A stretch of 64,000 nucleotides of DNA from a virus (IMGVR_UViG_3300005527_000046:1-64000); one strand, 5' to 3'. Positions 4,176 through 52,000 are shown, counted from the first letter of the stretch. Program-made: numbers and translations. The notes: a model not told the origin generated them from the sequence alone.

Positions 4176-4249
4176 GTGGGTATAGCTCAGAAGAAAAGAG
4201 TGCTGGCTTTGGGAGCCAGAGGCCGCAGGTTTAAGCCCTGCTACCCGCA
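4176..4249 (+). tRNA. tRNA-Pro (anticodon UGG)
   Basis: Hand-folded cloverleaf: acceptor GTGGGTA/TACCCGC, D-stem GCTC/GAGT, anticodon stem CTGGC/GCCAG with loop TTTGGGA, T-arm GCAGG-TTTAAGC-CCTGC, discriminator A, no encoded CCA. Confidence 0.7.
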
Positions 4250-4300: not shown

Positions 4301-5032
4301 TTACTTTTTCTTTTTATAATCAACTTCTAATTTAATACATCTTTTTTTTACAGCATTATCACTTACATCAAATATCTTTCCTATATAAACCATAGGATAT
4401 TTATCTACTAATTCTTGTAGTTCTTCTTTTGTAACTTCAAATTTTAAAGGACGTGAAAAGTTTACTTTATTATTTATCTTAGAGCATTTACCACATCTTG
4501 TAGATTTTATATGTATATTACAGTTACAATCTACACATTTGTTTTGAATGATCTCTTTTCTTCTTCCTCTACCAGCATAAGTTTCTGTTTGAGTGTGACA
4601 GTTAGGACATAAGAATCTAAGATTTTCTAATCTATTATCACTATTAATTCCATTAATATGATCTAATTGAAGAACTAATTCTTGATTATTCCAATGTCCA
4701 GGGTTATTACAAATAGAACATTTATATTTTAATAGATTTTCTTTTACTAATCTTCTTTTTAGATCTTGTCTGCTATATGTGGAATTTTCTACTAATATTT
4801 TATCTAAATCAAGAGCATTAATCCCTCCAAAAGATTTTGCTTTTCTATTTTTATTTAACTTGTCTAAAGATAAACTATCTTCTTTTATTCTATTGTTTAA
4901 TTCTTTGTAATTATTTCCATGAAGAGACATATCAATTTTTAAAAGAACTTCAGCTAAAGTATTACAGCTATTTAATATATCTTGTAATTTATCTTTATCT
5001 AATTTCCAAATTGTATTATGCATACTTTTCAT
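4301..5032 (-). CDS. HNH homing endonuclease with extra Cys-rich zinc-binding region
   Basis: HNH motif LDHINGINSDNRLENLRFLCPNCH; additional CxxC pairs; opposite strand to neighbours, adjacent to tRNA island. Confidence 0.7.
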   Translation of the reverse strand: MKSMHNTIWKLDKDKLQDILNSCNTLAEVLLKIDMSLHGNNYKELNNRIKEDSLSLDKLNKNRKAKSFGGINALDLDKILVENSTYSRQDLKRRLVKENLLKYKCSICNNPGHWNNQELVLQLDHINGINSDNRLENLRFLCPNCHTQTETYAGRGRRKEIIQNKCVDCNCNIHIKSTRCGKCSKINNKVNFSRPLKFEVTKEELQELVDKYPMVYIGKIFDVSDNAVKKRCIKLEVDYKKKK

Positions 5033-6861: not shown

Positions 6862-6998
6862 TGTTTAGTAGCTCAGTTGGTAGAGCGTCTGACTGTGGCT
6901 TTTTAGTTTAATGTAAAACTATAGTTAACTATATTATAGGTTCAATTCCTATAAAGGTCTTAATCAGAATGTCCCTGGTTCGATTCCAGGCTAGACAG
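6862..6998 (+). tRNA. tRNA gene interrupted by a roughly 64-nt insertion in the anticodon loop (possible anticodon GUG or CUU depending on insertion point)
   Basis: Perfect cloverleaf apart from the loop: acceptor TGTTTAG/CTAGACA, D-arm GCTC-AGTTGGTA-GAGC, anticodon stem TCTGA (6888-6892) / TCAGA (6964-6968) separated by 71 nt, variable ATGTC, T-arm CCTGG-TTCGATT-CCAGG, discriminator G. Confidence 0.5.
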
Positions 6999-17910: not shown

Positions 17911-18129
17911 ATGAAACAAAAACAAATTTATACTCCAAAGTATTGGATGTTTCATAGTTTATTATCAGATGATGTTTATATTGAAACTGCTTCTAAGAGT
18001 TTAGAAGAGTCTAAGATTAAAGCATCTATTTTATATAAGGAAGAGTATGATCATTATGAAAATCATAATCATACTTGTTTTGAATTTTGTCTGTTTGAAA
18101 TAAAAAATATCGTTGTAAATAAAACCTAA
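17911..18129 (+). CDS. hypothetical small protein
   Basis: ORF track. Confidence 0.35.
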   Translation: MKQKQIYTPKYWMFHSLLSDDVYIETASKSLEESKIKASILYKEEYDHYENHNHTCFEFCLFEIKNIVVNKT

Positions 18130-19346
18130 TGAAAAACAAAAGCAAGGTAACTATTGTTATTGTTAATAATGCTCTAAGACTTCTTGATAACCCTTTGCTA
18201 GAAGACTTAGATGGACAAGTAATATTTGTTTTTGCTCTTACTCCTTATTATTTTAGTGTGGCTCATTATACTAAAATTCCTAGTGTAGGTGAGAATAGAT
18301 TTAAGTATTTATTTGCTTGTTTGGCAAAGTTTAAACAACTTCTTAAGGAGAAATTTAATGCTGATCTATTAGTATTAGAAGGTAGTTATAAGCAAGTTGT
18401 TGATGAGATTGTAAAGACTGCAGGGCATTTTAATCAAATAGAAGTAAGGGTGTTACATCAGCCTTATCAATATGAGATTATGTATGAACAAGAGTTACTA
18501 GATGATCCTTATTACAACTTATTAGCTAATAGAGTTGACATTATTAATGAAGGTATGACTTTAGTTCCTTTTAATATTTTATGTAACTTATATCCACAAT
18601 ATAAAGGAAGATCTTTTAAAGATTTTCACTTTGCTTGTTTGAGAGAACAACATCATATTAAATTTGTTGATATTAGTAACATTAATGTTATTCCTGTCAG
18701 TGTTGATATAAAGTCAATAGAAGGAGATGCAGATTGTAATAACTTCTATTATGATATGAAAGGTATAGAGAACTACAAAGACAATAAGTCAGCCATCACA
18801 GGTGCAAGCACTACAAAGATAGAAGCTGCTCTTTCTCTAGGTACTATGTCTAAAAAAATAGCTTATGGTCTTGCTTTAAACTATAAAACTAGTGATAGTG
18901 ATAAAGGTGAATTTATTAGATCCCTTTTATGGGGCGACTATTGTTACATTATTGCTGAGTTTGAAGGTAATAAAATATTCTACAAAGACGGCCTAAGTAA
19001 GAATATAAATAAAACTAAAATTGAACCACTACCAGACTTTATTAAAGGCACTGGAACTGAAGTTAAGTTCTATAATAAAGCAATGGGTAAGCTTAGATCT
19101 GAAGGTTATTTACCTAATAGAGTAAGAATTATTCTTGGTTATTATGTTATTAAAGTTTTAAAATATTCTCCTTTAGCTTTGGCTGAATACTTTGAGCATT
19201 ACTTAATTGGTTTTAATAATGCAAATAACTGGATTGGCGCTCACTCTTGTAATGGCACAGGAGTAGATACCATTCCTGGAGGTAGACCTTTTAATATTAA
19301 AAGACAATTAGATGATTGGGATTTAAATAAGGAGTACCTTAGATGA
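18129..19346 (+). CDS. DNA photolyase / cryptochrome family protein (short form)
   Basis: N-terminal IVIVNNALRLLDNPLL resembles the photolyase WFRRDLRLxDNPAL motif; C-terminal LIGFNNANNWIGAHSCNGTGVDTIPGGRPFNIKRQLDDWD resembles the FAD-binding domain signature (D-x-D-x-A-x-N-x-G-x-WQW...FR.FNP). Confidence 0.5.
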   Translation: MKNKSKVTIVIVNNALRLLDNPLLEDLDGQVIFVFALTPYYFSVAHYTKIPSVGENRFKYLFACLAKFKQLLKEKFNADLLVLEGSYKQVVDEIVKTAGHFNQIEVRVLHQPYQYEIMYEQELLDDPYYNLLANRVDIINEGMTLVPFNILCNLYPQYKGRSFKDFHFACLREQHHIKFVDISNINVIPVSVDIKSIEGDADCNNFYYDMKGIENYKDNKSAITGASTTKIEAALSLGTMSKKIAYGLALNYKTSDSDKGEFIRSLLWGDYCYIIAEFEGNKIFYKDGLSKNINKTKIEPLPDFIKGTGTEVKFYNKAMGKLRSEGYLPNRVRIILGYYVIKVLKYSPLALAEYFEHYLIGFNNANNWIGAHSCNGTGVDTIPGGRPFNIKRQLDDWDLNKEYLR

Positions 19347-24261: not shown

Positions 24262-24375
24262 GTTATAATGTATGTGGTTGTAATCTGTTTTACAACTACT
24301 ACATTTAAGTTTGAAAGCTTAATAGATAAACACAAACAAAACAATAATTAAACAAAAAGGAACAATAATAATAAT

Positions 24376-24804
24376 ATGTCTGATTTATTTGTACAAGGTA
24401 TTAGAAGTAAGGTAAGATTTCAACTTCCTCAAGGTGAGCTTACAATGGAACAACTGTTTGATCTTAAGCCTATTAAGAGTAGAACAGAGAAGAATGAAGA
24501 TGGCACTCCTAAAGTAATTGATGTTCTTGCTGATTATGAAGCTGAACTACAAAATGAAGTAGAATCTTTTGCTAAGATTACTAGAAGAGGTTCTAGTACT
24601 AGAAGTGCTGCCCAAAATGCAACTCAATTGAAGCTATCAATTGTCACTGCTATTCTTGATATTAGAGACAGTGAAGCAGAAGAAGCTGCTACTAAAGCTG
24701 CTGTTAGAGCACATAATGCAGAGATTGATGAACAACTTGCTGAGCTTGATAGAAAAGACAGAGCTAATCTTACCAGAGAACAATTGCTTGCCATGAGAAA
24801 GTAA
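24376..24804 (+). CDS. hypothetical protein
   Basis: ORF track; followed by a terminator hairpin. Confidence 0.5.
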   Translation: MSDLFVQGIRSKVRFQLPQGELTMEQLFDLKPIKSRTEKNEDGTPKVIDVLADYEAELQNEVESFAKITRRGSSTRSAAQNATQLKLSIVTAILDIRDSEAEEAATKAAVRAHNAEIDEQLAELDRKDRANLTREQLLAMRK

Positions 24805-24831
24805 TAGTACTTTCTAATCTATATAAACAAT

Positions 24832-24870
24832 AAGGACTAAACTGTAATATACTTAGTCCTTTTGTTTATT
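24832..24870 (+). terminator. rho-independent terminator (stem AAGGACTAA/TTAGTCCTT, 12-nt loop, T-rich tail)
   Basis: 9-bp perfect stem followed by TTGTTTATT. Confidence 0.5.
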
Positions 24871-24903
24871 ATTTAATAATGTTGTTATAAGAAGAGTTTT
24901 AAT

Positions 24904-24975
24904 ATGACCAAGCCATTTAGTATTGTATGTGAAGATTATACTGTTTATATGATGGTGGGACCATCAAATTGTGGT
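24904..24975 (+). CDS. pnkp: Pnkp exon 1: N-terminal 24 codons ending in the first half of the kinase P-loop (MTKPFSIVCEDYTVYMMVGPSNCG)
   Basis: Short ORF ending in G-P-S-N-C-G; joining to 26289 recreates GPSNCGKS (Walker A GxxxxGK[ST]); exon ends in T as required for group I 5' splice sites. Confidence 0.5.
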
Positions 24976-26288
24976 AGTACAAATTTTGCCTAGTTTTATA
25001 TGTTAATTTTAGAGTAAACTACTTTTATAAATTATTATAAAAGTAGTTATGACATACTCTCAAGAATTAAGAAATATAGCTTTAGAAATGTATCAATCCG
25101 GAATTAGTTCAAGCAATATAGCTAATGAATTAAATATAAATCCTAGAACCGTTTTAAACTGGATACCTAAAGAACTTATAAGATCTATAATACCTCCTTA
25201 TTCTAAAGAAGTAATAGATAAAGTTTTAGATATGTATAATTCAGGCTTAAGTGCTAATAATATAGCAATTAAATTAGGATTAAATAAAAAAACCGTTCTA
25301 AGATGGATTCCTAAAAACCTTAAAAGATCTGTAAAGGATTATGATTTAGGTTATGAAAGAAACCATAACTTTTTTAGAGATATTAAATCTGAACAACAAG
25401 CTTATTTTTTAGGCTTAATAACCGCAGATGGAAGTATATCTAAAACAGGAACATTAGGCTTAGAATTAAAGCATTCTGATGGTTATTTAATAGAAAAATT
25501 TAGAGATCTTTTATCTCCTAATGCTAAAATAAGTTTTTCATCTAGAACTAAAGTATATAAAGGAAATTCTATAATAAGTGAAACTAGCTATCTTAAAATC
25601 ACTTCTAGACATTATTTAGAAGATTTAGCAAGATATGATATTGTTCCTAATAAAACTTATCTAGATATAAGATTACCTATTTTTGATTCAAATTTAATGA
25701 ATCATTATATAAGAGGTTTATTTGATGGAGATGGAAGTGTTTATACTCGTAGTAAATATAAATCTTTATTAACTGTTACTTTTGTTGGTGGAGAGCTTTT
25801 ATTAAATCAAGTAAAAGACTATTTAAAATTAAATTTAGATCTAAAAGGAAATCTTAATATAAGAGCAAGACAAACTAATTGTTTTGATTTTTCTTTAACT
25901 ACTCAAGAAGATATACATAAGTTTAAAGAATACATCTATAAAGATGCAACTATATTTCTTAAAAGAAAACATGCAAAATTTTATAATGAAATTATTGCCA
26001 CATAAGTCTGTGAATTGCTGGGATAACTTGAAGGTTAATTAACTACAACATAATTAGTAATAATAAGTGTGAATGTTTAAAAATAATTAATTATAAGTCA
26101 ATCAGCAGCCAAGTGTCCTAGTAATAGGATAAAGGTTCAACGCATAGTACATGGAGTCCTATTTATATAGGATAGTAAAGTACCAAGAGTGCAGACTACT
26201 AGTTAAACTTAACTGGTAAAGATATATGCTGGACTACTAAGTGATTAGTAGAACTAAGGGATAAAAAGCCTTTAGGTTAACAAAATTG
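24976..26288 (+). mobile_element. candidate group I intron carrying a LAGLIDADG homing-endonuclease ORF, inserted in the Pnkp P-loop codons
   Basis: Last exon base U, last intron base G (26288); GC-rich structured 3' part (26006-26288) with GACUA-type and AAGAUAUA-type core-like elements; internal ORF 25049..26005. Confidence 0.5.
25049..26005 (+). CDS. LAGLIDADG homing endonuclease with two N-terminal HTH repeats
   Basis: Two LAGLIDADG motifs (YFLGLITADGSI and IRGLFDGDGSVY); duplicated N-terminal module (SxISSSNIANELNINPRTVLNWIPK / LSANNIAIKLGLNKKTVLRWIPK). Confidence 0.75.
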   Translation: MTYSQELRNIALEMYQSGISSSNIANELNINPRTVLNWIPKELIRSIIPPYSKEVIDKVLDMYNSGLSANNIAIKLGLNKKTVLRWIPKNLKRSVKDYDLGYERNHNFFRDIKSEQQAYFLGLITADGSISKTGTLGLELKHSDGYLIEKFRDLLSPNAKISFSSRTKVYKGNSIISETSYLKITSRHYLEDLARYDIVPNKTYLDIRLPIFDSNLMNHYIRGLFDGDGSVYTRSKYKSLLTVTFVGGELLLNQVKDYLKLNLDLKGNLNIRARQTNCFDFSLTTQEDIHKFKEYIYKDATIFLKRKHAKFYNEIIAT

Positions 26289-28628
26289 AAGAGTTTCATT
26301 TCAAAAGAATTAGAGTTACAACTAAAAGCTAATAATACTGATGTTACTATTCTTTCATCTGATGATATTAGAAGAGAATTATTAGATGATTATAGTATTA
26401 ATAAATATGATCCAAGAATGCTTGAAGTGTCTTCTCAAGCTTTTAATTTGTTATATGCTAAGCTTAGAAATTACATCAGTTATCCAGTAAATAAGAAGTT
26501 TGTAATCATTGATAATACTGGTTTGAACCAACAATTTAGAACTGACATTCTTAACATCTGTAGAGATAATAATTATAAGGTTGTCTGTATCTTGTTTGAT
26601 TATAAGAACGGAGAAGACTGGTTTGTTAATGATGGTGGTGATAAGTTTGTTATTCAAAAGCATTTAGACAGATTGCAGAAACATGTGTTTAAAGAACTGA
26701 AAGCTAAAGACTATCACAAAGTTATAAGAGTCACAGATAGGATTGAAAGTGTTAATGTTACTTATATACAAGATAAGAATAACTTACTTGTAGATGGTAA
26801 TAACTACACTGTCATTGGTGATGTTCATGGTTGTGTTGATGAGTTAAAACAGCTTATTAGTAACATTAAAGATGAACATAATGTGCCAATCTTGATGGGT
26901 GATTGGATTGATAGTAAACTTGGCAGCGTAAGTTGTAATGCAGCTATTATTGATTACTTATTAGATAATCCTCAAATACTACTTGTTAAAGGTAATCATG
27001 AAGAGAACTTATATAAGAATTTAAATGACTTAACACGGGAGAAATTAGATAATAAATTCTTTAATAGTAGACAATTAATCTATGACTTTCCAGAGTATAA
27101 GACTAAGTTTATAGAACTTTATAATAGAAGTTATACTAGTATTAGAGGTCAAGGCTTTATTGTTACTCATGCTCCTTGTAAGAGTAAGTACTTGTTAACA
27201 AGTCTTAATAAGATGACTAACTTATATTATACGACTGAAGAGAAGTGTGATCTTATTAATGAGATATATACTGACAAGTATTATAATAGCTGCTGGCCTC
27301 TTCACTTATATGGTCATCTAACATTTGATAGACCTGTTAAGACTAGATTTAGTATTGGTCTTGACACTGGTGTTGGTTATGGTGGTGTGTTAACTGGTTA
27401 TAATGTTGCTACTAGAAAGTTTATTATTGTTCAATCTACCTTAGATAATAGTCTTAAACAACTTGATAATCTTACTAAGTTTAAGTATCCTGTACAAGAC
27501 TTAGAAGTTAAGTTAGATGATGATGATACTAGAAAGTTAAGTAGTTTTATCAGAAACAAGGTGCCTTATATCAGTGGAACTATGTGTCCTGCTGATAAGA
27601 CTGAAACAACCTTAGAAGATATTAAAACTGTGTTAGCCTACTATGCTTCTACTGGACAAACACAAGTGTTAATACAACCTAAATACATGGGTAGTAGAGC
27701 ACAAGTATTATTAACTAGAAATAGTTATGAGGTGTTTACTAGAAGTGGCTTTAAGTTAAAACATACACCTGAATTAGACACTGCTATACAAGCACTAGAA
27801 GATAATGTATCCAATGAGTTAATGACTTGGCTTAATAGTTTAGGGCCTTATACTTCAACATTATTAGATTGTGAGTTGATGCCTTGGTCTTATCTTGGTA
27901 AAGGTTTAATTGAGGATACATTTGAATCTTATTATTATAGTCATAAGTTACACATTGAAGCTATGATTAAACATGGTTTTTATACTGATTTAGAATCTTA
28001 TAAGATTAGTGATGATTATGTTAATAAGGTGCCATCAGCAAACAAACAAGTTGGTAATCTTAATCAATGGAGAAACACTAGTAATCTAGATAATCTAAAT
28101 ATCTTTGGCACTGAACTAGATAAGTATGCCTCAACTGAAGCACCTTACTTTGTTCCTTTTAATATTCTTAAAGTTGAGTCTGAAGATAAAATTCTTTATA
28201 GTAATAGTGAGTTTAATAGATTTAATAACTTTGAGTTGTTAAGCTTATTACAAACACCATTACATGTGGTTGATGTTAATGATTTAACAGAAGGGATAAA
28301 AGTACAAAACTTATATAGTCACCTCGAAGGTATTGTTGTTAAACCTTACTACAATATTGAAGGCCAAGCACCATATATTAAAGTTAGAAACATAGATTAT
28401 TTAAGATTAGTTTATGGTCATGACTATACTTCTAAGTTGGATAAGTTCATTGATAAGAAAAACATTAAAGGTAAACTTAGGGTGTCTATTAATGAATGGC
28501 AACTTGGTAATGCTTTATTAGATATGCATTCCTCTGAGTTTGTTGAATCTAATAAAGAGTATGTTAATACTTTAATTAGACTAATGTTTGAGTTGAAAAA
28601 AGAACAAGGACTAGATCCAAAATTATAA
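26289..28628 (+). CDS. pnkp: Pnkp exon 2: polynucleotide kinase - metallophosphoesterase phosphatase - ligase-like RNA repair enzyme (ORF track 26286..28628 with apparent TTG start)
   Basis: N-terminus aligns with T4 Pnk after the P-loop (KSFISKEL...SSDDIRREL); central GDVHGC / GDWIDS / GNHE metallophosphatase motifs; C-terminal KYMGSRA nucleotidyltransferase-like motif; no ATG start and no P-loop in this ORF. Confidence 0.65.
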   Translation, partial: KSFISKELELQLKANNTDVTILSSDDIRRELLDDYSINKYDPRMLEVSSQAFNLLYAKLRNYISYPVNKKFVIIDNTGLNQQFRTDILNICRDNNYKVVCILFDYKNGEDWFVNDGGDKFVIQKHLDRLQKHVFKELKAKDYHKVIRVTDRIESVNVTYIQDKNNLLVDGNNYTVIGDVHGCVDELKQLISNIKDEHNVPILMGDWIDSKLGSVSCNAAIIDYLLDNPQILLVKGNHEENLYKNLNDLTREKLDNKFFNSRQLIYDFPEYKTKFIELYNRSYTSIRGQGFIVTHAPCKSKYLLTSLNKMTNLYYTTEEKCDLINEIYTDKYYNSCWPLHLYGHLTFDRPVKTRFSIGLDTGVGYGGVLTGYNVATRKFIIVQSTLDNSLKQLDNLTKFKYPVQDLEVKLDDDDTRKLSSFIRNKVPYISGTMCPADKTETTLEDIKTVLAYYASTGQTQVLIQPKYMGSRAQVLLTRNSYEVFTRSGFKLKHTPELDTAIQALEDNVSNELMTWLNSLGPYTSTLLDCELMPWSYLGKGLIEDTFESYYYSHKLHIEAMIKHGFYTDLESYKISDDYVNKVPSANKQVGNLNQWRNTSNLDNLNIFGTELDKYASTEAPYFVPFNILKVESEDKILYSNSEFNRFNNFELLSLLQTPLHVVDVNDLTEGIKVQNLYSHLEGIVVKPYYNIEGQAPYIKVRNIDYLRLVYGHDYTSKLDKFIDKKNIKGKLRVSINEWQLGNALLDMHSSEFVESNKEYVNTLIRLMFELKKEQGLDPKL

Positions 28629-29199: not shown

Positions 29200-30408
29200 A
29201 TGATAATTGACGTTAATTCTAGCAACTTTAACATGTCTTACATTCTTAATAAGAATCCTAGTAGTGGCTTGCTTATTAGAGATTGTAGAAAGGGTTTTGT
29301 AGTGGGTAAGTATGTTAATCCTTTAACATATATGGCTGTCTTTGAAGAAGGTACTGGACAGGATTCCTTTGAGAAAGAAGGTAATTATTTAGTTTATAGA
29401 GGTTATTGTTCTGCTGAAGCTGCTCTTACAGTAATAACAGCATTGTTTGATTGTATTAAAAAAGATAGTAATAATAAGTATGAGGAAGGACCTTCTTTAA
29501 ATACTATTACTATTAAATGTTTAGATATTGATGTTAAACATTTATCTATATTTAACACTGAAAGCTTTAACATTACAGAGTATACAATAGCTGATAATTG
29601 TAATTTAGTACAATTAAATGTTACTAATAATAGTAGTTTAATTGATGTTTTAAGGTATACAGCTTTAATTCTATTCATGCAACTTGTTAAGGATAATGTG
29701 AGTTATCTAACACTTGATCAAGTTAATGTTTATGCTAACATCATCAAAAAAAATGACAACATTCCTTTTATTGTTAGACATAGATTTAGAGGCATTCTTG
29801 AAGATAATATGTCTAAAAAAGTAGTACCTTTATTAAATAATGATTCAATTAAACTATCTAATATTGGCAGAAATGAACAACAAAGATTTGCATTTGTAAG
29901 TCAACACATTTTATTTAAAAATAGTGTTTTAGATATTGGTTGTGGTCCTGGAAAATATATTAAAGTGTCTAAAGCTGCAAAATATGTTGGTGTAGATATA
30001 GATGAAAAGTGTATTGAAAAAGCTAAAACTAAGGCTAGCCATTTGAATGTAGATGCTTCCTTTTATACTGATTGGGCATTTGCTTTAGAACAATTAACAG
30101 AGCCTACAACAGTCCTTTTAATAGAGTTTATTGAACATATTGAAAAGGATGTAGCAATGCTTATATTAGAAAAACTTTGTTTATGTGAACAGGTTAAGCA
30201 AATACTTATTAGTACTCCTAATAAAGATTTTAATAAGCACTTTAATATTGCAGATGATGGTCTTAGGTTTGAAGACCATATCTATGAAATGACAGAAGAG
30301 GAGTTTAAAAGACTTCCTGGAAAAGATATAACTTGGGGAGATTCAGTTGATGGATGTCCTATGACTTTGTATAAAGATTTAAGATTAGAGGTAAGTATTC
30401 TTGACTAG
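29200..30408 (+). CDS. hen1: Hen1-like RNA 3'-terminal 2'-O-methyltransferase (MTase domain in C-terminal half)
   Basis: SAM motif I VLDIGCGPGKY; Hen1-specific metal-binding motifs LLIEFIEHIEKD (E-x-x-E-H) and RFEDHIYEMTEEEF (H-x-F-E-x-T-x-x-E-F); located immediately downstream of Pnkp as in bacterial Pnkp-Hen1 operons. Confidence 0.7.
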   Translation: MIIDVNSSNFNMSYILNKNPSSGLLIRDCRKGFVVGKYVNPLTYMAVFEEGTGQDSFEKEGNYLVYRGYCSAEAALTVITALFDCIKKDSNNKYEEGPSLNTITIKCLDIDVKHLSIFNTESFNITEYTIADNCNLVQLNVTNNSSLIDVLRYTALILFMQLVKDNVSYLTLDQVNVYANIIKKNDNIPFIVRHRFRGILEDNMSKKVVPLLNNDSIKLSNIGRNEQQRFAFVSQHILFKNSVLDIGCGPGKYIKVSKAAKYVGVDIDEKCIEKAKTKASHLNVDASFYTDWAFALEQLTEPTTVLLIEFIEHIEKDVAMLILEKLCLCEQVKQILISTPNKDFNKHFNIADDGLRFEDHIYEMTEEEFKRLPGKDITWGDSVDGCPMTLYKDLRLEVSILD

Positions 30409-31573
30409 TTTATTAGCATATCAACAACCAGATGGCAGTATTGATTTTAGAAGTAATGCTGCTACTTGTCCTAAGGTAAAAGCCGGCGTTTATAGAGCTT
30501 TAAATTCTATGGACAGAGGAATTTATTTAAGTCCTACAACTGAATTTAAATATCTAGATGAATACTTTCTATTAGATGAATTTGAAGAGTTAGTCTTAGA
30601 AAGTTTTAAACAGTCTAATAAGAGTTTAGCTGTTATATATCTTGGTCTTAAGGGTAGTGGAAAAACTAAAAGGGCGCATAAACTGGCCCTAGACTCAGGA
30701 ATGCCAGTGCTAATTATTGATAACTTAGATATTATTAATAGTCAACGTTGGAATGATATTGTTGGCAGTGATACATTAAATAACTGGATCATCTTTGTGG
30801 ATGAGTATGAAAAGAAGTTAGACAATGATAATTCAGTTGCCTTCTTAAATTGGCTAGACGGGTCAGTTAGTACTAAGCAATTGTTTATATTGATTGGCAA
30901 TGAACAAGCTAAGACTAAGTATAGTGATCCTCTTTTAGATAGACTCTCAAGGGTCTTATGGAAGAAAGAATTTGGCTCATTAACCAATGAGCATGTTGAA
31001 ACATTAGTAAATAAACTCTCCAAGAGAGAAGAAAAGTCTGAGTTATTAGATCTGCTTAATAATATTCCTGTGTTGTCTATGGATAATACGATGCAGATTA
31101 TTAGAATAACTAATATGTTTCCAGATAGGTCTATTGAGTCTTTACTTACTAAACTAAATATTAGCTTTAATAGTGTTGAAGAGTTTACATTTGTAGATGA
31201 GTTTTATAAACCTTTAACATATGGTGAAGATCATATTGGACTAACTATTACTAGAAGTGGTCCTATACTTAATGTTGCAAGAATTATTAGATTCTATATA
31301 GAATCTGATGATATTATAGAAAGGTTTAACCCTGAAGATAGTGATAAAAAGATCTATAGAATAAAGGTTGAAGCTCCTGCAAAGACTATTAAACTTACTA
31401 AAGTTAGTAGATTTATATATAAATTTGAAGCTCCTTATAGTGTTTGTTATAATTATACAGAGTGGGATGAAGATGCGTGGCAGCCTTCTGACAAAACTAT
31501 GACTGTATTCTTATATAAAACAATGGCCTGGAATTTATTAGCTAATCCTAATAGTAATACTTACTATATGTAG
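30401..31573 (+). CDS. P-loop NTPase (Walker A GLKGSGKTK, Walker B IIFVDEYE), translationally coupled to hen1
   Basis: Walker motifs; 8-nt overlap with upstream gene. Confidence 0.5.
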   Translation: MTSLLAYQQPDGSIDFRSNAATCPKVKAGVYRALNSMDRGIYLSPTTEFKYLDEYFLLDEFEELVLESFKQSNKSLAVIYLGLKGSGKTKRAHKLALDSGMPVLIIDNLDIINSQRWNDIVGSDTLNNWIIFVDEYEKKLDNDNSVAFLNWLDGSVSTKQLFILIGNEQAKTKYSDPLLDRLSRVLWKKEFGSLTNEHVETLVNKLSKREEKSELLDLLNNIPVLSMDNTMQIIRITNMFPDRSIESLLTKLNISFNSVEEFTFVDEFYKPLTYGEDHIGLTITRSGPILNVARIIRFYIESDDIIERFNPEDSDKKIYRIKVEAPAKTIKLTKVSRFIYKFEAPYSVCYNYTEWDEDAWQPSDKTMTVFLYKTMAWNLLANPNSNTYYM

Positions 31574-31578
31574 TAAAT

Positions 31579-31827
31579 ATGATTCAAAGACTTCCTAAGA
31601 TTGGTGAGGTTATAAAGATATATTGGTCTTCTCCTGAAGGAGAACAAAGAGCTAGAGTAATTAGTATTGTTCCTTATACAGGAAGATATTCTAATCACTT
31701 TACTCATATTATTAGACTAACTTCTAATACTAATAGAGGTTGGACTGAAATTGCTTGGAACAAAGATAAGCCTATTTGTGAGTGGTTTATACATAAAAAA
31801 ATGTATAAGCATGTTATGTGTTTCTAG
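31579..31827 (+). CDS. hypothetical protein
   Basis: ORF track. Confidence 0.4.
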   Translation: MIQRLPKIGEVIKIYWSSPEGEQRARVISIVPYTGRYSNHFTHIIRLTSNTNRGWTEIAWNKDKPICEWFIHKKMYKHVMCF

Positions 31828-32014
31828 CTTTTATTATGATCAAGCTTATTGGGTGTATAAATATTTAAATAATAGAAATATACCTTATAAGCTTGATTGT
31901 AATATTCATCTTGATGATGGCTTTCAATTGTTTGTACCAGAAGAATTTTTGTACAAGATTAGAAATGATTTGTGGTATATTGAAAGGCGGTTAGTGGAGT
32001 TAAATGATGGTTAA
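31751..32014 (+). CDS. hypothetical protein
   Basis: ORF track. Confidence 0.35.
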   Translation: MLGTKISLFVSGLYIKKCISMLCVSSFYYDQAYWVYKYLNNRNIPYKLDCNIHLDDGFQLFVPEEFLYKIRNDLWYIERRLVELNDG

Positions 32015-32540
32015 GATATATGTAATTAGTGACACTCACTTTGGTCATGAGAACAGTCTTAAGTGGCTTGATAGTGAGGGTAATAAGCTAAGACCTTTTG
32101 ATACAGTTGAAGAGCTAAACAACACTATGATTACTAATTGGAATAATACTGTTAAGCCAGAAGATCATGTGTATCATTTAGGAGATGTTGTTATTAAAAA
32201 GGAGTACTTAGAGTTAGTAAAACAACTTAATGGTCATAAGCGTCTGGTCAAAGGTAATCATGACCAACAGACCCTTAAAGAGTATATAGCTGTAGGTTTT
32301 CAAGAGATCTATGGAGTAAGAGTATTCCCTGGTTTAAAGTGTATTTTAAGTCATATACCAATACATCCAGAATGTCTAAAAGAAGACTGGATAAATGTAT
32401 CGGGCCACCTTCATTCCAACAACCTTTCTGACAGAAGATATATTAATGTTAGTGTTGAGCAGATAAATTATACTCCTGTTTTGCTAGAAGATATATTAAA
32501 ACAAAGAAGAAATGAAAATATCAATTCAAGAAGAAGTTGA
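32004..32540 (+). CDS. metallophosphoesterase (calcineurin-like)
   Basis: N-terminal IYVISDTHFGHEN and later GNHD / GHLH motifs. Confidence 0.55.
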   Translation: MMVKIYVISDTHFGHENSLKWLDSEGNKLRPFDTVEELNNTMITNWNNTVKPEDHVYHLGDVVIKKEYLELVKQLNGHKRLVKGNHDQQTLKEYIAVGFQEIYGVRVFPGLKCILSHIPIHPECLKEDWINVSGHLHSNNLSDRRYINVSVEQINYTPVLLEDILKQRRNENINSRRS

Positions 32541-40979: not shown

Positions 40980-42164
40980 ATGACAGATTATAGATACTGT
41001 AAACTTATTATGATTACAGATGATAATCATAATAAGTATTATGAAATGCAGGAAACTAGTGAAAACATACAAATTAAATATGGGCGAGTTGATAGCTCTT
41101 GTATTACTATTACTAAGCCTATAAGTCAGTGGAATTCTTTAATTAAAAGTAAGTTAAAGAAAGGATATAAAGATGTTACTGATTTAGTTGCTATTGTTAA
41201 GGATGACAGTAAACCTAGAACTTTATTGTATAGCCAAGAATTATATGATATTTTTCTTAAAAAGATGATGGATTATAGAGATGGTCTTGTATCTTCTACT
41301 TACAGTGTTAAGGCTAATCAAGTTACTAGAAAGCAACTAGAACAGGCTCAGTTGTACATTAATGAATTAGCAAAAATAAAGACTGATTATGAATTAACAG
41401 AAGAAGATATAAAGAGTATTAATAACTTATTAATACAGTTATATACAGTCATTCCTAGGTATATGAATAAGGTTCAAAACTATTTAATACCTAATATTAG
41501 TCTTAATAACTTAGTACAAAAAGAACAAGATAATCTAGATGCTATTTCTTCTCAAGTTATAGAAGAGATACAGGAAAATACAGATGAGAAAACTACATAT
41601 TCTCCAGCAGAGCAGTTAGGTATAAAGATATCTAAAGTTGATAGTTCACCCACTGAAATTGAATATATCACTAAGCAAATATCCAAAAAGATAAAAGGTT
41701 TGTTTGAAGTAGAAATACCAAAACATAAAAATAAATACAGATCTTATTTAGAGTCTAATGCACAAAAACAACAAGATAACTCTAAATACTTAATACACGG
41801 TACTAGATGTAGTTCTGTTATTCCTATTATTGAGCAAGGCTTAAAGATTAGGCCTAGCGGCAATTATCATTATTCTGGAAAGGTATATGGAGATGGTAAT
41901 TACTTCTCAGAAGTAGTTAATAAATCCTTAGGATATACAGGCAATGATAATGATAAGATATTATTAATATATCAAGTATATATTGGTACTCCTTTTATTT
42001 ATAAAGGATGGTTTAGAGGTAATTCATTTGAACTAAGCTATGATGAATTAAAGAGTAGAGGTTATGATAGTACCTTTGTAAAGGCTGGCAACGGTCTTTT
42101 AAATAGTGAGATTATTGTTTATAAAGAAGAACAAGCTCACCTTAGATATATAATTTGGCTCTAA
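40980..42164 (+). CDS. PARP-like ADP-ribosyltransferase (C-terminal catalytic domain)
   Basis: H-Y-E triad context: LIHGTRCSSVIPIIEQGLKIRP (His), GKVYGDGNYFSEV (Tyr), LLNSEIIVYKEEQAHLRYIIWL (Glu), collinear with PARP catalytic-domain blocks. Confidence 0.55.
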   Translation: MTDYRYCKLIMITDDNHNKYYEMQETSENIQIKYGRVDSSCITITKPISQWNSLIKSKLKKGYKDVTDLVAIVKDDSKPRTLLYSQELYDIFLKKMMDYRDGLVSSTYSVKANQVTRKQLEQAQLYINELAKIKTDYELTEEDIKSINNLLIQLYTVIPRYMNKVQNYLIPNISLNNLVQKEQDNLDAISSQVIEEIQENTDEKTTYSPAEQLGIKISKVDSSPTEIEYITKQISKKIKGLFEVEIPKHKNKYRSYLESNAQKQQDNSKYLIHGTRCSSVIPIIEQGLKIRPSGNYHYSGKVYGDGNYFSEVVNKSLGYTGNDNDKILLIYQVYIGTPFIYKGWFRGNSFELSYDELKSRGYDSTFVKAGNGLLNSEIIVYKEEQAHLRYIIWL

Positions 42165-46036: not shown

Positions 46037-49000
46037 TTAGGTATTAATAATTCCATCAATAACTTTAGTTCCTCTCTTTATATTGAACTGTTGTAATGCA
46101 ATTTGTTCACTATCTCTAGAACTTGTTTGTGTAAATTCTAAGGTTGTTTGACCTTTATCTGTTTTTCCTTTAGTAACCTTTGTTGCTGCTTGAATGTTTG
46201 GTGTTCCATCATTTATAAGTTGAATGTGTGGATTAGGTACTATATGACTTCCAACTACATTTAATGCTAAGTTTTTCTTAGTATTAATCTCATTAACATC
46301 ATTAGCCATTTGACCCATCTTAGTACTAACCTCTCCTAACTTAACAATTGCTTCTCTTGTTATAGCGTTTATCTCTGTTGATCCTATAATAGGAGCAGAG
46401 GTTATCTTTCTATTTTCAAGTTCTACAACTCTATTGATCTGACCTTCCCATGCTTGTATTTGTAATCTTTCTGTAACAGACATATATTTAGATACTAATG
46501 CATGATTTAACTTGTCATCCATTCTTGTGTTCCAAAATTGTTTACCTGTTACTAGTTGATTATAAGCTTTACCTCTAATAGCAAATGCAAAGTCCTGAGA
46601 TGGATCAACAGATCCTGGTCCATATCCTTCAGCAGTAGCAGCATATCCAGTCATAGGAGCATCAAAAGATGTAACAAATCTACCAGCAGTCTTTCTGCCA
46701 GTTGGATCATCTAAGGTGTCTATTTGTGCCATCCATTCTTGTTTCATTGCATCATTTACTGTGCCTTGAAATAGAGGATTTCTATAGTCTTTATCCCTAT
46801 ACTTTGTATCATTATATATTTGATTGGCAGGTTTAAATAGATAAGATCCTGGCGCTCCAAACATCTGTGTTGGTAAGTTACTAAGATTAGATGCAAAGTC
46901 ATCTGCTGTCTCAGGACTGTTAAGTATCCAAACAATTTGTACTGCAGTTAATACTAAAGAAGCAACTAAACCCCAAGGTCCTGCTGCTACTCCAGAAATA
47001 GCTTTTAATCCAGCTCCTGCAAATTTTGCACCAGTTACTAATCCTTTAATTGCCATTCCTTGTGCTGTCTTTTGTATTGCAGCGTTTCTTATTGCTGTAC
47101 TAGCACTCTGTATAAGACCTACCTTAGCAACTTGTTCTGTTATCTTAGAAGTGATAGTCTTTGCAACTATAGTTTGTCCAATCTTATTGGCTATAAATGG
47201 AGTTACTAATGTACTACTTAAAGAATCTAATGCCTGTAAACTAGCACCTTCTAATCTGTTATTCTTAGAGTCTAATGAGTGTCCTAAACCAACTCCAAAT
47301 ATTAAAGCACCAATAGCTGCAACTCCCGCATTAATTAGATTGCCTGTCTTTAAGTAGTTAAGAGTTCCTCCAATACCTAAAGCTAAACCTCCAACAATGT
47401 TTATAACTCCACTTTGGTTTTGAATATTTCTTATTACTTGTCTTCCTCCTTGATAAAAGTCATCCATCTTAGAAGTAATATATCCACCCAACTCAGGACT
47501 TAAAGAAGATAGGGATGATCCAGCTAAGTCAAATACACTTCTACCAGCTAAGGTTAAACCAGCTAATCCTATAGAAACTCCCCAAGTTTTACTTGCTTTG
47601 AATAATGCTATAGATGATGCAGCTAAAGTAATACCTACAGCACCAGCAGTAATTCTTCCTCCAGTTCCATTATTCTTAAATAGTAAATCATAGCCAAAGA
47701 AACCAGCAGCTAGTCCTCCTATTCCAGGAATAATACTCTTCTGAATTGACTGATTCATTAATAATGTACCAAAGAATAAAGCCCCCCATATATTGTCAAA
47801 GCTTTCTTTGGCCATTTCTTCTCTGGCCATTTCTTTTTCTCTTTCTCCTGTTTTACTAGAAGCTACACTAGCTGCAGCTCTAAATGTTAATAAGTTAGTA
47901 CTAACAAACATAGCCATTTGATAGCCATTCATTAGTACTGTTCCCATTCTAGATAAACCCTCTAGAAATGTTAAACCTGCAGTAGTCTGTAATGCTTTAG
48001 GTGGCACTCCTACTGGCATACTTCCCTGAAGTCCAGATCTAGTATTTTGTTTTATATCAAGTTCAATAGCTTTTGCAACTTCTTCTTGTAACTCTTTAGT
48101 GGGGACATTAAACATACCTCCACCATATTTTCTTACATTGTCTAATACTTCTTTAGATGCATCTGTTGCTTCTAAAGTCATTCTGGTTATTAGATCTCTG
48201 TTAGTTCCTCCACTAACTATATTTAATAATCTATCAAAGACAGCAGTTAAACCAGTTCTCTTTGTTGAAATGATTGTGGTTAATCTATCTTTAATCTGTT
48301 CTCTAAGATGTAACTTGTTATTAAATCTTTGATCTACTGATACTTTATTAACATAATCTTCATCAATTATTGCTGTGCTGTTTAACTCCCTTCTAACAGA
48401 ATTAGTATAAATATTGTCTGCATCTTGTATAAAAGCTGCTTTAATTCTTTCATCAATAACATCATAGTAACTATCAATAACAATATCAAATTTGGCAGCA
48501 TATACTTCTGTCATAAGATCAATAGAATGTCTCATATTAGGGCTTCTATCTTTGCCAAATATATTGAAACCTCCTCCAAATTTTCCTGCCGCTTTAGATA
48601 TGAATTTATCAGCTTTAGCTTCTAATAAATCATCATAAGTAAAGCCTTTATAATATTTATCTACAAAGTCTGCTTTAGCTATAGGAGTTTTAGATTCAGC
48701 ATTATAAGCATCATATTGACCCTCTAAATAAGCATCAAGAACTTGCTTATTAGTATAATCATCTAATAAGTGTTCTGTTATTTTATGTGTTGTATGATTA
48801 TAAGTTATAGTTTCATCTAGGGTTTCTGAGAACATTACAGATTTAAATTCTCTAGCATGAGTTCTAGCTATTCTGTCATCTCTAGTAGATAATCTAGTTG
48901 TTTGACTTGGTGCTGATCTAGTTTCTAACTCATCATAAAAGTCATTTAATCTTGTTATTTGTTGAGTGTGTGCTTGTCCATAGTTCTTTGAATAGTCTCT

Positions 49001-52000
49001 ATAAGCACTATCAAACTTCATAGATAAAGCTCCACTTAATTCATTGATTTGACTTGTATATTTCTTAGCTTGATGATCTGTTAAGCCTTCAGCTATTGCA
49101 AATACAACTTGTGTTCTTCTTAGTAATAAGAATTTACCTGCCGCCGCTTTTAATTCTTCTGCTTCATATAAATGTTTAGAGAACCACTTTCCTTCATCAA
49201 AGTACTTATGTTGTTGTTCCCATAATAATGTATTGTCTTTTGTTACTTGACCTTGACTGGCTTTAGTGGCAGCAACAACTGATATAGCAGCAGTAACTAA
49301 ACCAAGAGAACCTATTCCAACTGCCATTATAGGCAGCCACATAAATGGTGGAAGAGCTTGAGTTAATCCTTGCAATGAAGATGTGTCTCTAACTTTTGTT
49401 AGAAATTCTCCAGCTCTTTCAAAGAAGCTTTTATTTGAATCATATTGATTTGCTGTTGATTGAATTGCAATTCCTTGCATCTCCATAAAAGCATTTTCAT
49501 TATCACTGTCTTGTATAGACATTTTAGCTGCTATAAAAGGATTAGAGTTAGATGCTAAACCACCTATTTGTTTTACAGTTATTTCACCTCCCATAAAGAA
49601 ATTTTGATTTATCTCTCCTAATCCAGTCTGACTTCCATTGCTTGATATATCTTTTAATGCTTTATAGAACTTACCTTGCATATCTGGTGAAGCTATGTTC
49701 ATATTATTCATTAAGGTATATAAAGCTATGTTTACATTAGTACCATAAGATAATGCTTGTAGTCTCTTATATCTTTGGTTGAGAGACATTGCTAAAGCTT
49801 TATTAGTAGTCATAGCTTCTAATGTATATTTATTAGGAGATGTAAACTTAATTCTATCTTTACCTGATCTTGTTGGTTGGCTATATACAGCAGTAATAAT
49901 GTTAGAAGCAAACTGTCTTAGTTGTGCTTGATTGTGTCCAGCAGCATCATCAATTCCTCTTAAATTAGCAATAATATTCTGTGCTAAGAAACCTTTCTTA
50001 GCTAATTCTTGTAGTCCAAATACAGATGACATACTATACATTGCAGATGAGAAATCTTGTGATGCTGATTGTATTTGGAAATAGTCTCTAAGTCTTACAT
50101 CACTATCATCTGGTCTTATTGTTATACCACCAACAGCCACACCAATAAAGGTATTTGGTGAATTTACAATTATTAAATTACTCAATTGTTTTAGTGAGTT
50201 GTTTATTGCTCCTTTAGTTGTACTGTCTGGATTTATTAAGAATTCACCTTTACTATTATGTAAATTAGGTCCTACTAAACCTTTAGCAATGTCATAAGAA
50301 TGGGCTCTATCATACTTTGTTTGTAGTTTAACAAAGTCTACTACACCTTTTCTAAAGTTTGCCCAAGGTGTGTTGCTGTCTTCATCTGCTCCTATTAAAG
50401 CATCTTGAAAGTCCTTATAACCCATGCCTTGAGATGCCCAATTTAAGCCATGAAATGTTAGTCCAAGTAAGGCTGTAGTTCCGCCTAATCTAGCCCATCT
50501 TTCTATATGAACTCTATTACTAGCAGATCTATTTATACTCATTCCTTTTAACACTGCTGAGGCTGGTTGATTGTTAGCAGGATTACTAAACTTATCTAAC
50601 TCAGCTAATACTGCTGAAGCTTGGTTATTCTTTATAATTGAGTTTAAGTCTGTACCAGCACTTATATCTAAGGACTGTAAACCTTTATAGACATTATTAG
50701 ATCTATTACTTGTTATTTGTTTAATGTTTGAATATGGATCACTTACATTAAAAGCATTTTTGAATATCTTTCCTTGTGCATCTTCTACTGCTTGAATAAT
50801 AGGAGAGTTGCCCATTCCTTCTTCTATTATTATTTGTACTTCTCTTGCTTCCATGTTTAACTTATATGTTTCATACTTTAAGCTTAGAGATTGTATAAAG
50901 CCAATATTCTTCTTTCCTATTGGCACTTGTTGTAGTCTTTCTACAACAGTTAATCTATTCCTAAATCTCTCAACAATTTGTTCAGGATTAATATCTGCAA
51001 AGATTAAACTCTTAGGATTAAAGGATGTAACTCCTGCTGTTAATGCGAATAAGGTTGCACCAAAAGCAACAGTTGTCATTCTTCTTGTATTGTCATATTT
51101 ATCTTCTGTTTGTTTTGTTAAATCTCCAAATGCTATTTCTGGATTTACTTTGCCTGATGTTGGATCTGTTATAAAATGATTCCACAAAGCTCCAACAGCT
51201 AGTAAGCCTAATCCTTTTCCTACTTTATTTTCTAATGTTCCTGTTTGGAATACAGCACTTTGTTTTACAAAGCCTCCAAACTTGCCTAATGTATTTCTAT
51301 ATAAACCTTTAAGACTGTTATTAGAATACATCCAAGCAACTAAAGGATCTATCTTTGTTTTGTCAAATCTTGCACTTGTAATATTTAATTCTGACTCTAA
51401 CATTGCTAGTCTTCTAGAGGCTGCTATTGTACCTTTAGCATAACTAATACCTCCTATAAGAGCAGCTCCTGCCATAATAGAAGCACCTCTTAAAGCAAAG
51501 TTTCCATCTTTATCTTCTTTCTTATTTGTAAAAGGTTGAGATAATGTATTAATAACACTATATAAGTGATTACCAATAGCACCTCCCATAAAGGCACTAA
51601 ATACAACAGGCACAAATGATGTTGATCTTAATCTTAAGCCTGGCATCCTAAAGTCACCAGTTGTTAGATTAAGAGACTGAGCAGCTATATAGAAAGGCAA
51701 TGTAGCAATCCCTAAGAACTTATCTCTGGCAGCCCTTGTTGATTGTGTTATTAAAGATTCAGTGGCAACAACAGTTCCAGTTGATTTAAGTATTTGATGG
51801 TTTCTTCCCCATATTCTATTCCTTACTAAGGTGTTAGATACTCCTATACCAACTCCACTCCATAAGGCTACTTGGCTATAGATGTTATAATAATCTTGTA
51901 AGCTTAAGGAGTCCTTATTCCCTTCATTAAGTATTAGACCAGTTCCTAGATAACCAGTTTTAATGGTTACATTATCAGCACTCTTAGCATTCATTGCAAA

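Follow-up and report, generated by a model that had tools for sequence, protein, structure and literature searches.

Why does the gene for the RNA-repair enzyme Pnkp break off inside the codons of its Walker A motif and continue only 1313 nucleotides (nt) further downstream? This question is raised by the viral DNA stretch IMGVR_UViG_3300005527_000046:1-64000 (hereafter the window, i.e. the whole 64,000 nt analysed), in which the two parts of pnkp and everything between them are read from the + strand. In our estimate, the intervening segment 24976..26288, which ends in a terminal guanosine (omega-G) at 26288, is with a probability of about 90% a group IA intron, the excision of which reconstitutes pnkp. 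Its boundaries come from three sources: i) the protein alignment with homologues, ii) the same junctions in three other loci (L003, L005 and L143), and iii) the 3' tail of the intron family, GAUAACAAnnnG.

The pnkp exons and their junction

Exon 1 (24904..24975) consists of 24 codons, MTKPFSIVCEDYTVYMMVGPSNCG, from ATG 24904 to the glycine codon GGT that ends at 24975, and its last six residues open the Walker A loop. A preliminary description of this DNA had called 24904..24975 an open reading frame (ORF) of 24 codons. This is correct for the exonic codons, whereas the physical ORF adds five codons (STNFA) past 24975 before TAG 24991-24993 and is thus 29 codons long. Exon 2 (26289..28628) begins with KSFISKE and encodes the remainder of the kinase, followed by the metallophosphoesterase domain and the PNKP ligase domain. 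As already noticed in that description, it has no ATG: its frame is open only from 26265, after TAA 26262-64, no in-frame ATG lies nearby, and TTG 26286 is the start used by gene callers for the downstream ORF of 780 amino acids (aa).

When 24975 is joined to 26289, the P-loop GPSNCG|KS results. The last exon base is T24975 (U in RNA) and the last intron base G26288, exactly the U and G that had been pointed out before, and the first exon-2 codons AAG AGT follow. The predicted ligated junction reads ...AAUUGUGGU|AAGAGUUUC..., the core of the join being CCATCAAATTGTGGT|AAGAGTTTCATTTC. The spliced Pnkp would be 803 aa long, and in Pfam it matches AAA_33 (kinase, residues 14-128, E 6e-10), Metallophos (198-369, E 2.7e-11) and PNKP_ligase (448-771, E 2.8e-25). 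It therefore has the three modules of a bacterial-type Pnkp, i.e. P-loop 5' kinase, metallophosphoesterase and C-terminal ligase, while the 780-aa ORF alone has no AAA_33 match among its precomputed Pfam hits.

A protein search with the spliced Pnkp returned two classes of relatives. One consists of near-identical 780-aa products with the same TTG start. The other consists of full-length proteins of 801-820 aa and 77-86% identity, uninterrupted across the junction, with P-loops such as MTKPFNIVCEDYTVYLFVGPSQSGKSW, ...IGCSNSGKSY and ...VAPSNAGKST, the common form of the site being V(G/A)PSxxGKS. The 24 residues of exon 1 align with the N-termini of the intron-less homologues P0006-P0017 (for example P0006, MTKPFNIVCEDYTVYLFVGPSQSGKSW), and a 60%-identical relative, P0024, contains exactly GPSNCGKST in one piece. 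Five intron-less loci (L006, L007, L140, L141 and L142) are syntenic with the window and carry no insert. The claim that pnkp is split within its Walker A codons, with GPSNCGKS restored on joining, is thus borne out by homologues that are contiguous at this site. A chance match of the two exons is not plausible, because the exon-1 residues match intron-less N-termini and the kinase domain appears only upon splicing. From these contiguous homologues we infer that the exons are ligated at 24975/26289.

The only other in-frame 3' splice site, G26276, was rejected, as it would put LTKL into the P-loop, which is seen in no homologue. An intein was ruled out as well, because the insert does not keep the frame and contains numerous stop codons. 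A scan of viral contigs for DNA resembling the spliced junction matched only an unrelated P-loop gene. A search for promoters in 24300-26400 yielded 9 sites where 12.4 were expected.

The insert belongs to a widespread family of phage introns

Compared with phage genomes by blastn, the region matched only at 25980-26284. This segment aligned with introns from Staphylococcus phages (Twort nrdE, DW2 and K-like phages) and with one that interrupts the ribonucleotide reductase (RNR) gene of a megaphage. The homologous element of DW2 scores 80.1 bits with the Rfam group I model RF00028, for which the gathering score is 50 bits. When 311 nt of the window (25990-26300) were scanned, RF00028 gave 30.9 bits (E 2.6e-6), with a 5'-truncated match to model positions 41-253. 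The score falls below the threshold because an ORF parts helix P1 from the core and because P5 and P7.1/P7.2 carry large insertions.

When metagenomes were scanned with a P6/R-element pattern, at least 120 contigs matched, and 14 of 20 related metagenome loci tested matched RF00028 with 69.7-109.9 bits. An nhmmer profile was then built from 53 relatives, excluding the pnkp introns and their closest relatives. Against the 64-kb window it gave a single match, at 25996-26250 (E 3.2e-26). By homology, the core of the insert is assigned to a very widespread phage intron family, many members of which pass the RF00028 threshold. The group I identity proposed earlier is hence supported by homology to Rfam-validated introns and by the sub-threshold RF00028 match, together with the covariation described below. 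A group II intron was ruled out, as neither RF00029 nor RF02004 matched in the window.

Structure of the ribozyme core

The core (26005..26251) is supported by the RF00028 match, the nhmmer profile and covariation, and comprises helices P3 to P9. The comparative structure includes P3 (26005-12/26190-97), P4 (26016-21/26102-07), P5 (26026-30/26094-98), P5a-c (26033-26092), P6/P6a (26108-26136), P8 (26199-205/26210-16) and P9 (26234-40/26245-51). The pseudoknot helix P7 (26140, 26142-46/26225-30) is supported by complementarity across the family, P7.1 (26147-50/26180-83) by compensatory changes in all four of its pairs, and P7.2 (26157-62/26167-72) by the pair count. A P9.1 hairpin (26254-60/26269-75), with compensatory changes in six of seven pairs, and the 3' tail GUUAACAAAAUUG ending in the omega-G together occupy 26254..26288. 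This tail fits the family consensus that precedes the 3' splice site and is kept in L003, L005, L008, L029 and L051; relatives also keep the omega-G at the same place with respect to P9.1 and the tail.

The helices, worked out by comparative inspection together with the Rfam alignment, were placed on an alignment of six sequences (the window, L003, L005, L008, L029 and L051). For the proposed helices P3-P9.1, including the P7 pseudoknot, 93.8% of the cells were paired, compared with 33-43% when the partners were slid by one to three columns. Changes on both sides of a pair were found in 39 of 85 pairs, most densely in P7.1, P9.1, P9, P5b/c and P6a, and none of 500 shuffles reached any of these measures. 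P7, the 5' strand of which reads A-(C)-GCAUA at 26140-26146, is fully complementary in 96 of 101 relatives and occurs in five sequence versions, GCAUA/UAUGC in the window, GCCUA/UAGGC in L003 and GACUA/UAGUC in 83 of the 101. The pair beside the guanosine-binding G-C is C-G in the window, not A-U.

All parts expected of a group I core were found, namely P3-P8, the P3/P7 pseudoknot and the R and S elements; P2 is absent. The intron is assigned to subgroup IA because P7.1 and P7.2 lie between the 5' strand of P7 and the 3' strand of P3. As for the motifs in the 3' region that had been picked out by eye as core-like, AAGAUAUAUG is indeed the S element (J8/7 and the P7 3' strand), while CAGACUACUAG is not the R element and represents the 3' strand of P3 followed by the 5' strand of P8. 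The same region had been described as GC-rich, which was incorrect: its G+C content is 31%, compared with 29.5% for the window and 25% for the ORF.

These results also bear on the idea that the insert is a free-standing homing-endonuclease gene that splits pnkp into two separately translated polypeptides, which would then reassemble. Two ORFs of the same orientation do flank a mobile endonuclease gene, and some phage genes are known to be split. However, the N-terminal piece would measure 29 aa and end within the P-loop, the downstream piece has neither an ATG nor a recognisable start context, and 283 nt of conserved, covarying ribozyme separate the endonuclease gene from exon 2. We consider such a split gene extremely improbable.

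P1, the guide sequence and hairpins at the 5' end

In the predicted P1, exon UGUGGU and intron AGUA (5' strand, 24970..24979, with the 5' splice site after U24975) pair with UAUUGCCACA (3' strand, 25993..26002). The duplex has 10 base pairs (bp) and a free energy of -12.9 kcal/mol, and the same pairing was found in L003 and L005. In keeping with group I introns in general, the U at the 5' splice site forms a wobble pair with a G of the internal guide sequence (U24975-G25997). This guide, GCCACA (25997-26002), which the preliminary description had not located, follows the 5' splice site at a distance of about 1 kb and coincides with the last sense codons (GCC ACA) of a LAGLIDADG endonuclease ORF, the end of which reads ATT GCC ACA TAA. 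Since the guide is the end of the ORF, the P1 loop accommodates the ORF, P2 is lacking, and J1/3, the joiner between P1 and P3, consists of the stop codon UAA (26003-26005).

Support for this arrangement comes from two ORF-less relatives, DW2 and the megaphage RNR intron (L008). In both, the hairpin directly upstream of P3 is P1, and its 3' strand ends in CCAC(A/G)UAA; the counterpart in the window is GCCACAUAA (25997-26005), the correspondence being aligned with a register offset and the motif matched by inspection. For these two introns, the Rfam alignment and the recovery of the RNR motif determine the splice sites. For L008, the predicted sites restore GGG|KRKGSFAVYLEPWH, and in DW2 the exon frame stops directly after the predicted 5' splice site.

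Our first model of P1, a local hairpin GGU|AG...UUGCC at 24973-24990, was dropped, as the distal pairing is stronger (-12.9 versus -4.9 kcal/mol) and corresponds to P1 of DW2 and L008. A local hairpin at 24967-24995, pairing U24975 with G24988 (-1.5 to -4.9 kcal/mol), is nonetheless conserved in L003, L005 and L143; it could be a transient holding structure, or meaningless. A further, strong hairpin (25016..25060) lies directly 5' of the ORF's AUG at 25049 and encloses it. In minimum free energy (MFE) folds of the 5' 100 nt, this AUG is sequestered in the window, L003 and L005, in each by different sequences. According to these folds, the hairpin probably serves translational control of the ORF start, and ORFs overlapping core sequences are reported to be under tight control (PMC3984707). 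The hairpin at 25016-25048 was rejected as P2, because the relatives have no P2 and the ORF comes after the hairpin. Likewise, by eye no pairing between 24991-25015 and the 3' end of the ORF was consistent across L003 and L005 that could represent P2.

Is the intron a decayed relic?

Several observations weigh against an active group I intron. The Rfam (Infernal) scans of the whole insert, of a 1.8-kb segment and of the whole window gave no group I match in the pnkp insert. The preliminary description had proposed such a scan over 24976..26288 as a check, and only the 311-nt scan of the 3' part gave a match, the score of which (30.9 bits) does not reach 50 bits. The joiner between P1 and P3 is only UAA, compared with 7-9 A-rich nt in ORF-less relatives, P10 has at most 2 bp, and the P7 version of the window is rare in the family. 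Moreover, the covariation comes from only six related sequences, and the structure was derived from the window sequence itself.

The low score, the weak P10, the short J1/3 and the atypical P7 might be taken as signs of decay, the intron being a relic that has lost the ability to splice. In this case pnkp would be a pseudogene, or would yield a phosphatase-ligase devoid of the P-loop from an internal start such as TTG 26286, from which gene callers indeed annotate the 780-aa product. Decay of this kind is hard to reconcile with the state of the locus. The core helices are all intact and the substitutions between lineages are compensatory; the start and the codons of exon 1 are intact in four lineages (the window, L143, L003 and L005), and position -1 is U in each of them; purifying selection acts on exon 2, with ratios of nonsynonymous to synonymous divergence (dN/dS) of 0.19-0.36; and the ORF is intact and keeps its catalytic Asp residues. 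We therefore regard a relic as very unlikely and favour an intron that would be spliced from the pnkp transcript.

The LAGLIDADG endonuclease in the P1 loop

The ORF in the P1 loop (25049..26005) encodes a predicted homing endonuclease of 318 aa with two N-terminal helix-turn-helix (HTH) domains and a monomeric double LAGLIDADG domain. In Pfam, LAGLIDADG_3 matches in two stretches (E 1.4e-14, 54.5 bits, with a cutoff of 22.5) and HTH_7 with E 1.6e-8. Motif 1 is FLGLITADG (D127) and motif 2 IRGLFDGDG (D228), and D127/G128 and D228/G229 are invariant across an alignment of 57 homologues. An AlphaFold2 (AF2) model reached a pLDDT of 91.5, and the PDB matches listed by Foldseek were all LAGLIDADG proteins (bI3 maturase, I-AniI, I-Tsp061I and the I-OnuI family; E 1.9e-9 to ~1e-6). 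The pseudo-dimeric alpha-beta-beta-alpha-beta-beta-alpha fold is thus present in the model. All four lines (Pfam, invariant motifs, model and Foldseek) confirm the two-motif LAGLIDADG ORF that had been recognized earlier. A sequence search of the PDB gave marginal matches only.

Relatives of the ORF with 25-33% identity over 65-92% of the protein were found in 134 phage records, among them the 'mobile intron protein' of Bacillus phage 0305phi8-36. Among the four pnkp-intron copies its dN/dS amounts to 0.35-0.49, and these values point to purifying selection on the ORF, though relaxed.

Given that P1 spans a 1-kb loop, it may be asked whether the intron could be spliced only with the help of a protein, either the LAGLIDADG protein acting as a maturase or a host chaperone. 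About 1 kb lies between the guide and the 5' splice site, the ORF model resembles bI3 maturase and the bifunctional I-AniI most closely in structure, and a bacterial LAGLIDADG intron protein with maturase-like activity has been documented in Thermotoga (PMC3984707). On the other hand, the Foldseek ranks among LAGLIDADG proteins are close (E 1e-9 to 1e-6) and uninformative on RNA binding, no RNA-binding feature was identified in the protein, and ORF-less relatives of the same core are ordinary introns of the self-splicing type. We judge an obligatory dependence on protein to be distinctly unlikely, and favour a ribozyme that would splice by itself.

Distribution and mobility of the pnkp intron

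The same intron occupies the same site in four lineages (the window, L143, L003 and L005), the Pnkp proteins of which are only ~57-79% identical, while closer relatives of the window do not possess it. When the window, L003 and L005 were compared two by two, DNA identity was 89-91% in the ribozyme and 79-84% in the ORF, compared with 66-68% in exon 2 and 55-57% in the upstream gene. Synonymous divergence (dS) showed the same trend, with 0.28-0.50 for the ORF versus 0.69-1.36 for exon 2. Exon position -1 is T in all four intron-bearing alleles, and C or G in all four intron-less ones.

As the intron DNA is far more alike than the host gene and its distribution is patchy, horizontal spread is indicated. 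Judging from these sequence comparisons, the intron is younger than its host genes, and the data indicate spread by homing rather than by vertical descent alone. A site-specific cleavage of the intron-less allele is predicted from the same pattern.

A model of splicing and homing

In the model proposed here, the splicing steps follow established group I chemistry. In the pre-mRNA, exon UGUGGU (24970-24975) would pair with the guide GCCACA to form P1 with the U24975-G25997 wobble. The core P3-P9.1, with its guanosine-binding pseudoknot P7, would take up a free guanosine, which would attack after U24975. The freed 3'-OH of the exon would then attack after omega-G26288, and ligation to ...GGU|AAG... 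would yield GPSNCGKS and the 803-aa Pnkp.

Translated as a free-standing ORF, the P1 loop would provide an endonuclease that most likely cuts intron-less pnkp across GG(C/G)|AAR during co-infection. Repair of the cut allele by recombination would copy the intron into it, i.e. homing. A ribosome finishing the ORF would unfold P1, because the guide and J1/3 consist of the last codons and the stop codon of this ORF, respectively, and the hairpin burying the AUG probably holds translation low, allowing splicing to proceed. Given this overlap of ORF, guide and joiner, any one transcript might either be translated into the endonuclease or be spliced to give pnkp mRNA, but not both. The overlap would then act as a switch between Pnkp and endonuclease output, and the LAGLIDADG protein might even close the 1-kb P1 loop as a maturase. 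We put this forward tentatively, as a rather unlikely extension of the model.

Comparison with known introns

That conserved phage genes harbour group I introns with homing endonucleases is a classic observation, and such introns are abundant in some phage genomes (PMC12880540, PMC11878797). The introns of Staphylococcus phages (Twort nrdE and orf142, DW2 and K-like phages) share with the window a P3-P7 core alignable at 70-76% identity, the IA architecture with P7.1/P7.2 and protein-coding phage hosts, and in DW2 P1 is joined to P3 without P2 as well. They reside in other host genes and at other sites than pnkp. Twort nrdE encodes the HNH enzyme I-TwoI after the matched 5' core segment and DW2 contains no ORF; unlike both, the window carries a LAGLIDADG ORF in the P1 loop, overlapping the guide. 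The Twort introns self-splice.

The T4 td intron is likewise a phage group IA intron with a homing endonuclease in a conserved enzyme gene. Its enzyme, I-TevI, is however of the GIY-YIG type and unrelated in sequence to the window ORF, and td possesses P2. The I-TevI ORF is located in the P6 region of td, and its expression is restrained by RNA structure around its start. An endonuclease ORF in the P1 loop, with long-distance P1 pairing as in the window, is known from the Physarum intron PpLSU3 with I-PpoI. In contrast to the window, PpLSU3 is a eukaryotic nuclear rDNA intron of another subgroup and encodes a His-Cys box enzyme. Phage HTH-LAGLIDADG endonucleases (ORF036 of 0305phi8-36 and 'endonuclease' ORFs of Staphylococcus and Bacillus phages) are of the same Pfam LAGLIDADG_3 type, distant from the window ORF in sequence and located in other host genes. 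LAGLIDADG is not among the families that a 2014 review lists as commonest in phage introns, and constitutes a documented minority there (PMC3984707).

The closest full-length core outside pnkp is that of L008 (megaphage LR756504.1), with 70% identity over 275 nt. It has the same P9.1, 3' tail GAUAACAAnnnG and P1 geometry as the window, and differs in having no ORF, a P1 loop of 11 nt, the canonical P7 GACUA/UAGUC, an A-rich J1/3 of 9 nt and another host gene.

No paper describing an intron in pnkp was found in open-access texts. The pnkp intron is genuine and of an ordinary phage type, its site has not been described before, and it is structurally notable for the position of its ORF in L1, where it overlaps the guide sequence. 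It challenges no current view. With it, the Walker A codons of pnkp join the conserved catalytic motifs in which phage group I introns reside, as a new site in a new host gene, and a LAGLIDADG-type enzyme joins the phage intron endonucleases. The position of the ORF in the P1 loop, with the guide in its coding sequence, also shows in compact form how an ORF and a ribozyme can overlap. Wherever the intron is present, gene callers give a 780-aa 'kinase-less' Pnkp and a stray ORF of 29 codons. Because gene callers split pnkp in this way and standard Rfam scans miss the intron, functional prediction for the RNA-repair cassette will be wrong unless the exons are joined.

Genomic context and further observations

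Downstream of pnkp, hen1 (29200..30408, + strand) matches Hen1_N (Pfam, E 1.9e-27) and methyltransferase domains and is syntenic in L003, L005, L006 and L140. It is followed by an AAA ATPase gene (30401-31573) and a small metallophosphoesterase gene (32004-32540). From its gene content, the interrupted pnkp is assigned to a phage-borne Pnkp-Hen1 RNA-repair cassette, and the pnkp-hen1 cassette (downstream part 29200-32540) is syntenic in all relatives compared. Phage-borne Pnkp/Hen1 has been reported in the jumbo phage XacN1 (PMC5852040), which was also matched in our ligase-domain search. The phage collection searched contained no close relative of the window's phage.

Elsewhere in the window, seven tRNA genes lie on the + strand between 4176 and 11396. 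Two of them are only 63-64 nt long (6897-6960 and 9969-10031), and the one at 9855-9938 is barely above threshold. An HNH endonuclease ORF (4301-5032, - strand) adjoins the tRNA gene at 4176-4249 on the strand opposite to its neighbours and is probably a free-standing homing endonuclease. Other ORFs include a single one of 3428 aa (46037-56323, - strand), one with a PARP catalytic domain (E 2e-17, 40980-42164) and a photolyase-like one (18129-19346).

Among the other loci, Listeria phage LPJP1 (L009; 2490-2642 and 3811-4454) has a group-I-like core, followed within 1.2 kb by group II matches (RF02004, 94 bits; RF00029, 56 bits), between unannotated ORFs. Five metagenome contigs (L026, L085, L052, L056 and L100) contain three to five related group I cores within 1-3 kb of one another, which suggests genes with multiple introns. 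In L008, the RNR gene appears to be interrupted upstream of its intron, too (568-2983, with an extra ORF at 1839-2762), and a Hint-like C-terminal ...VHN stands directly before the 5' splice site of the intron.

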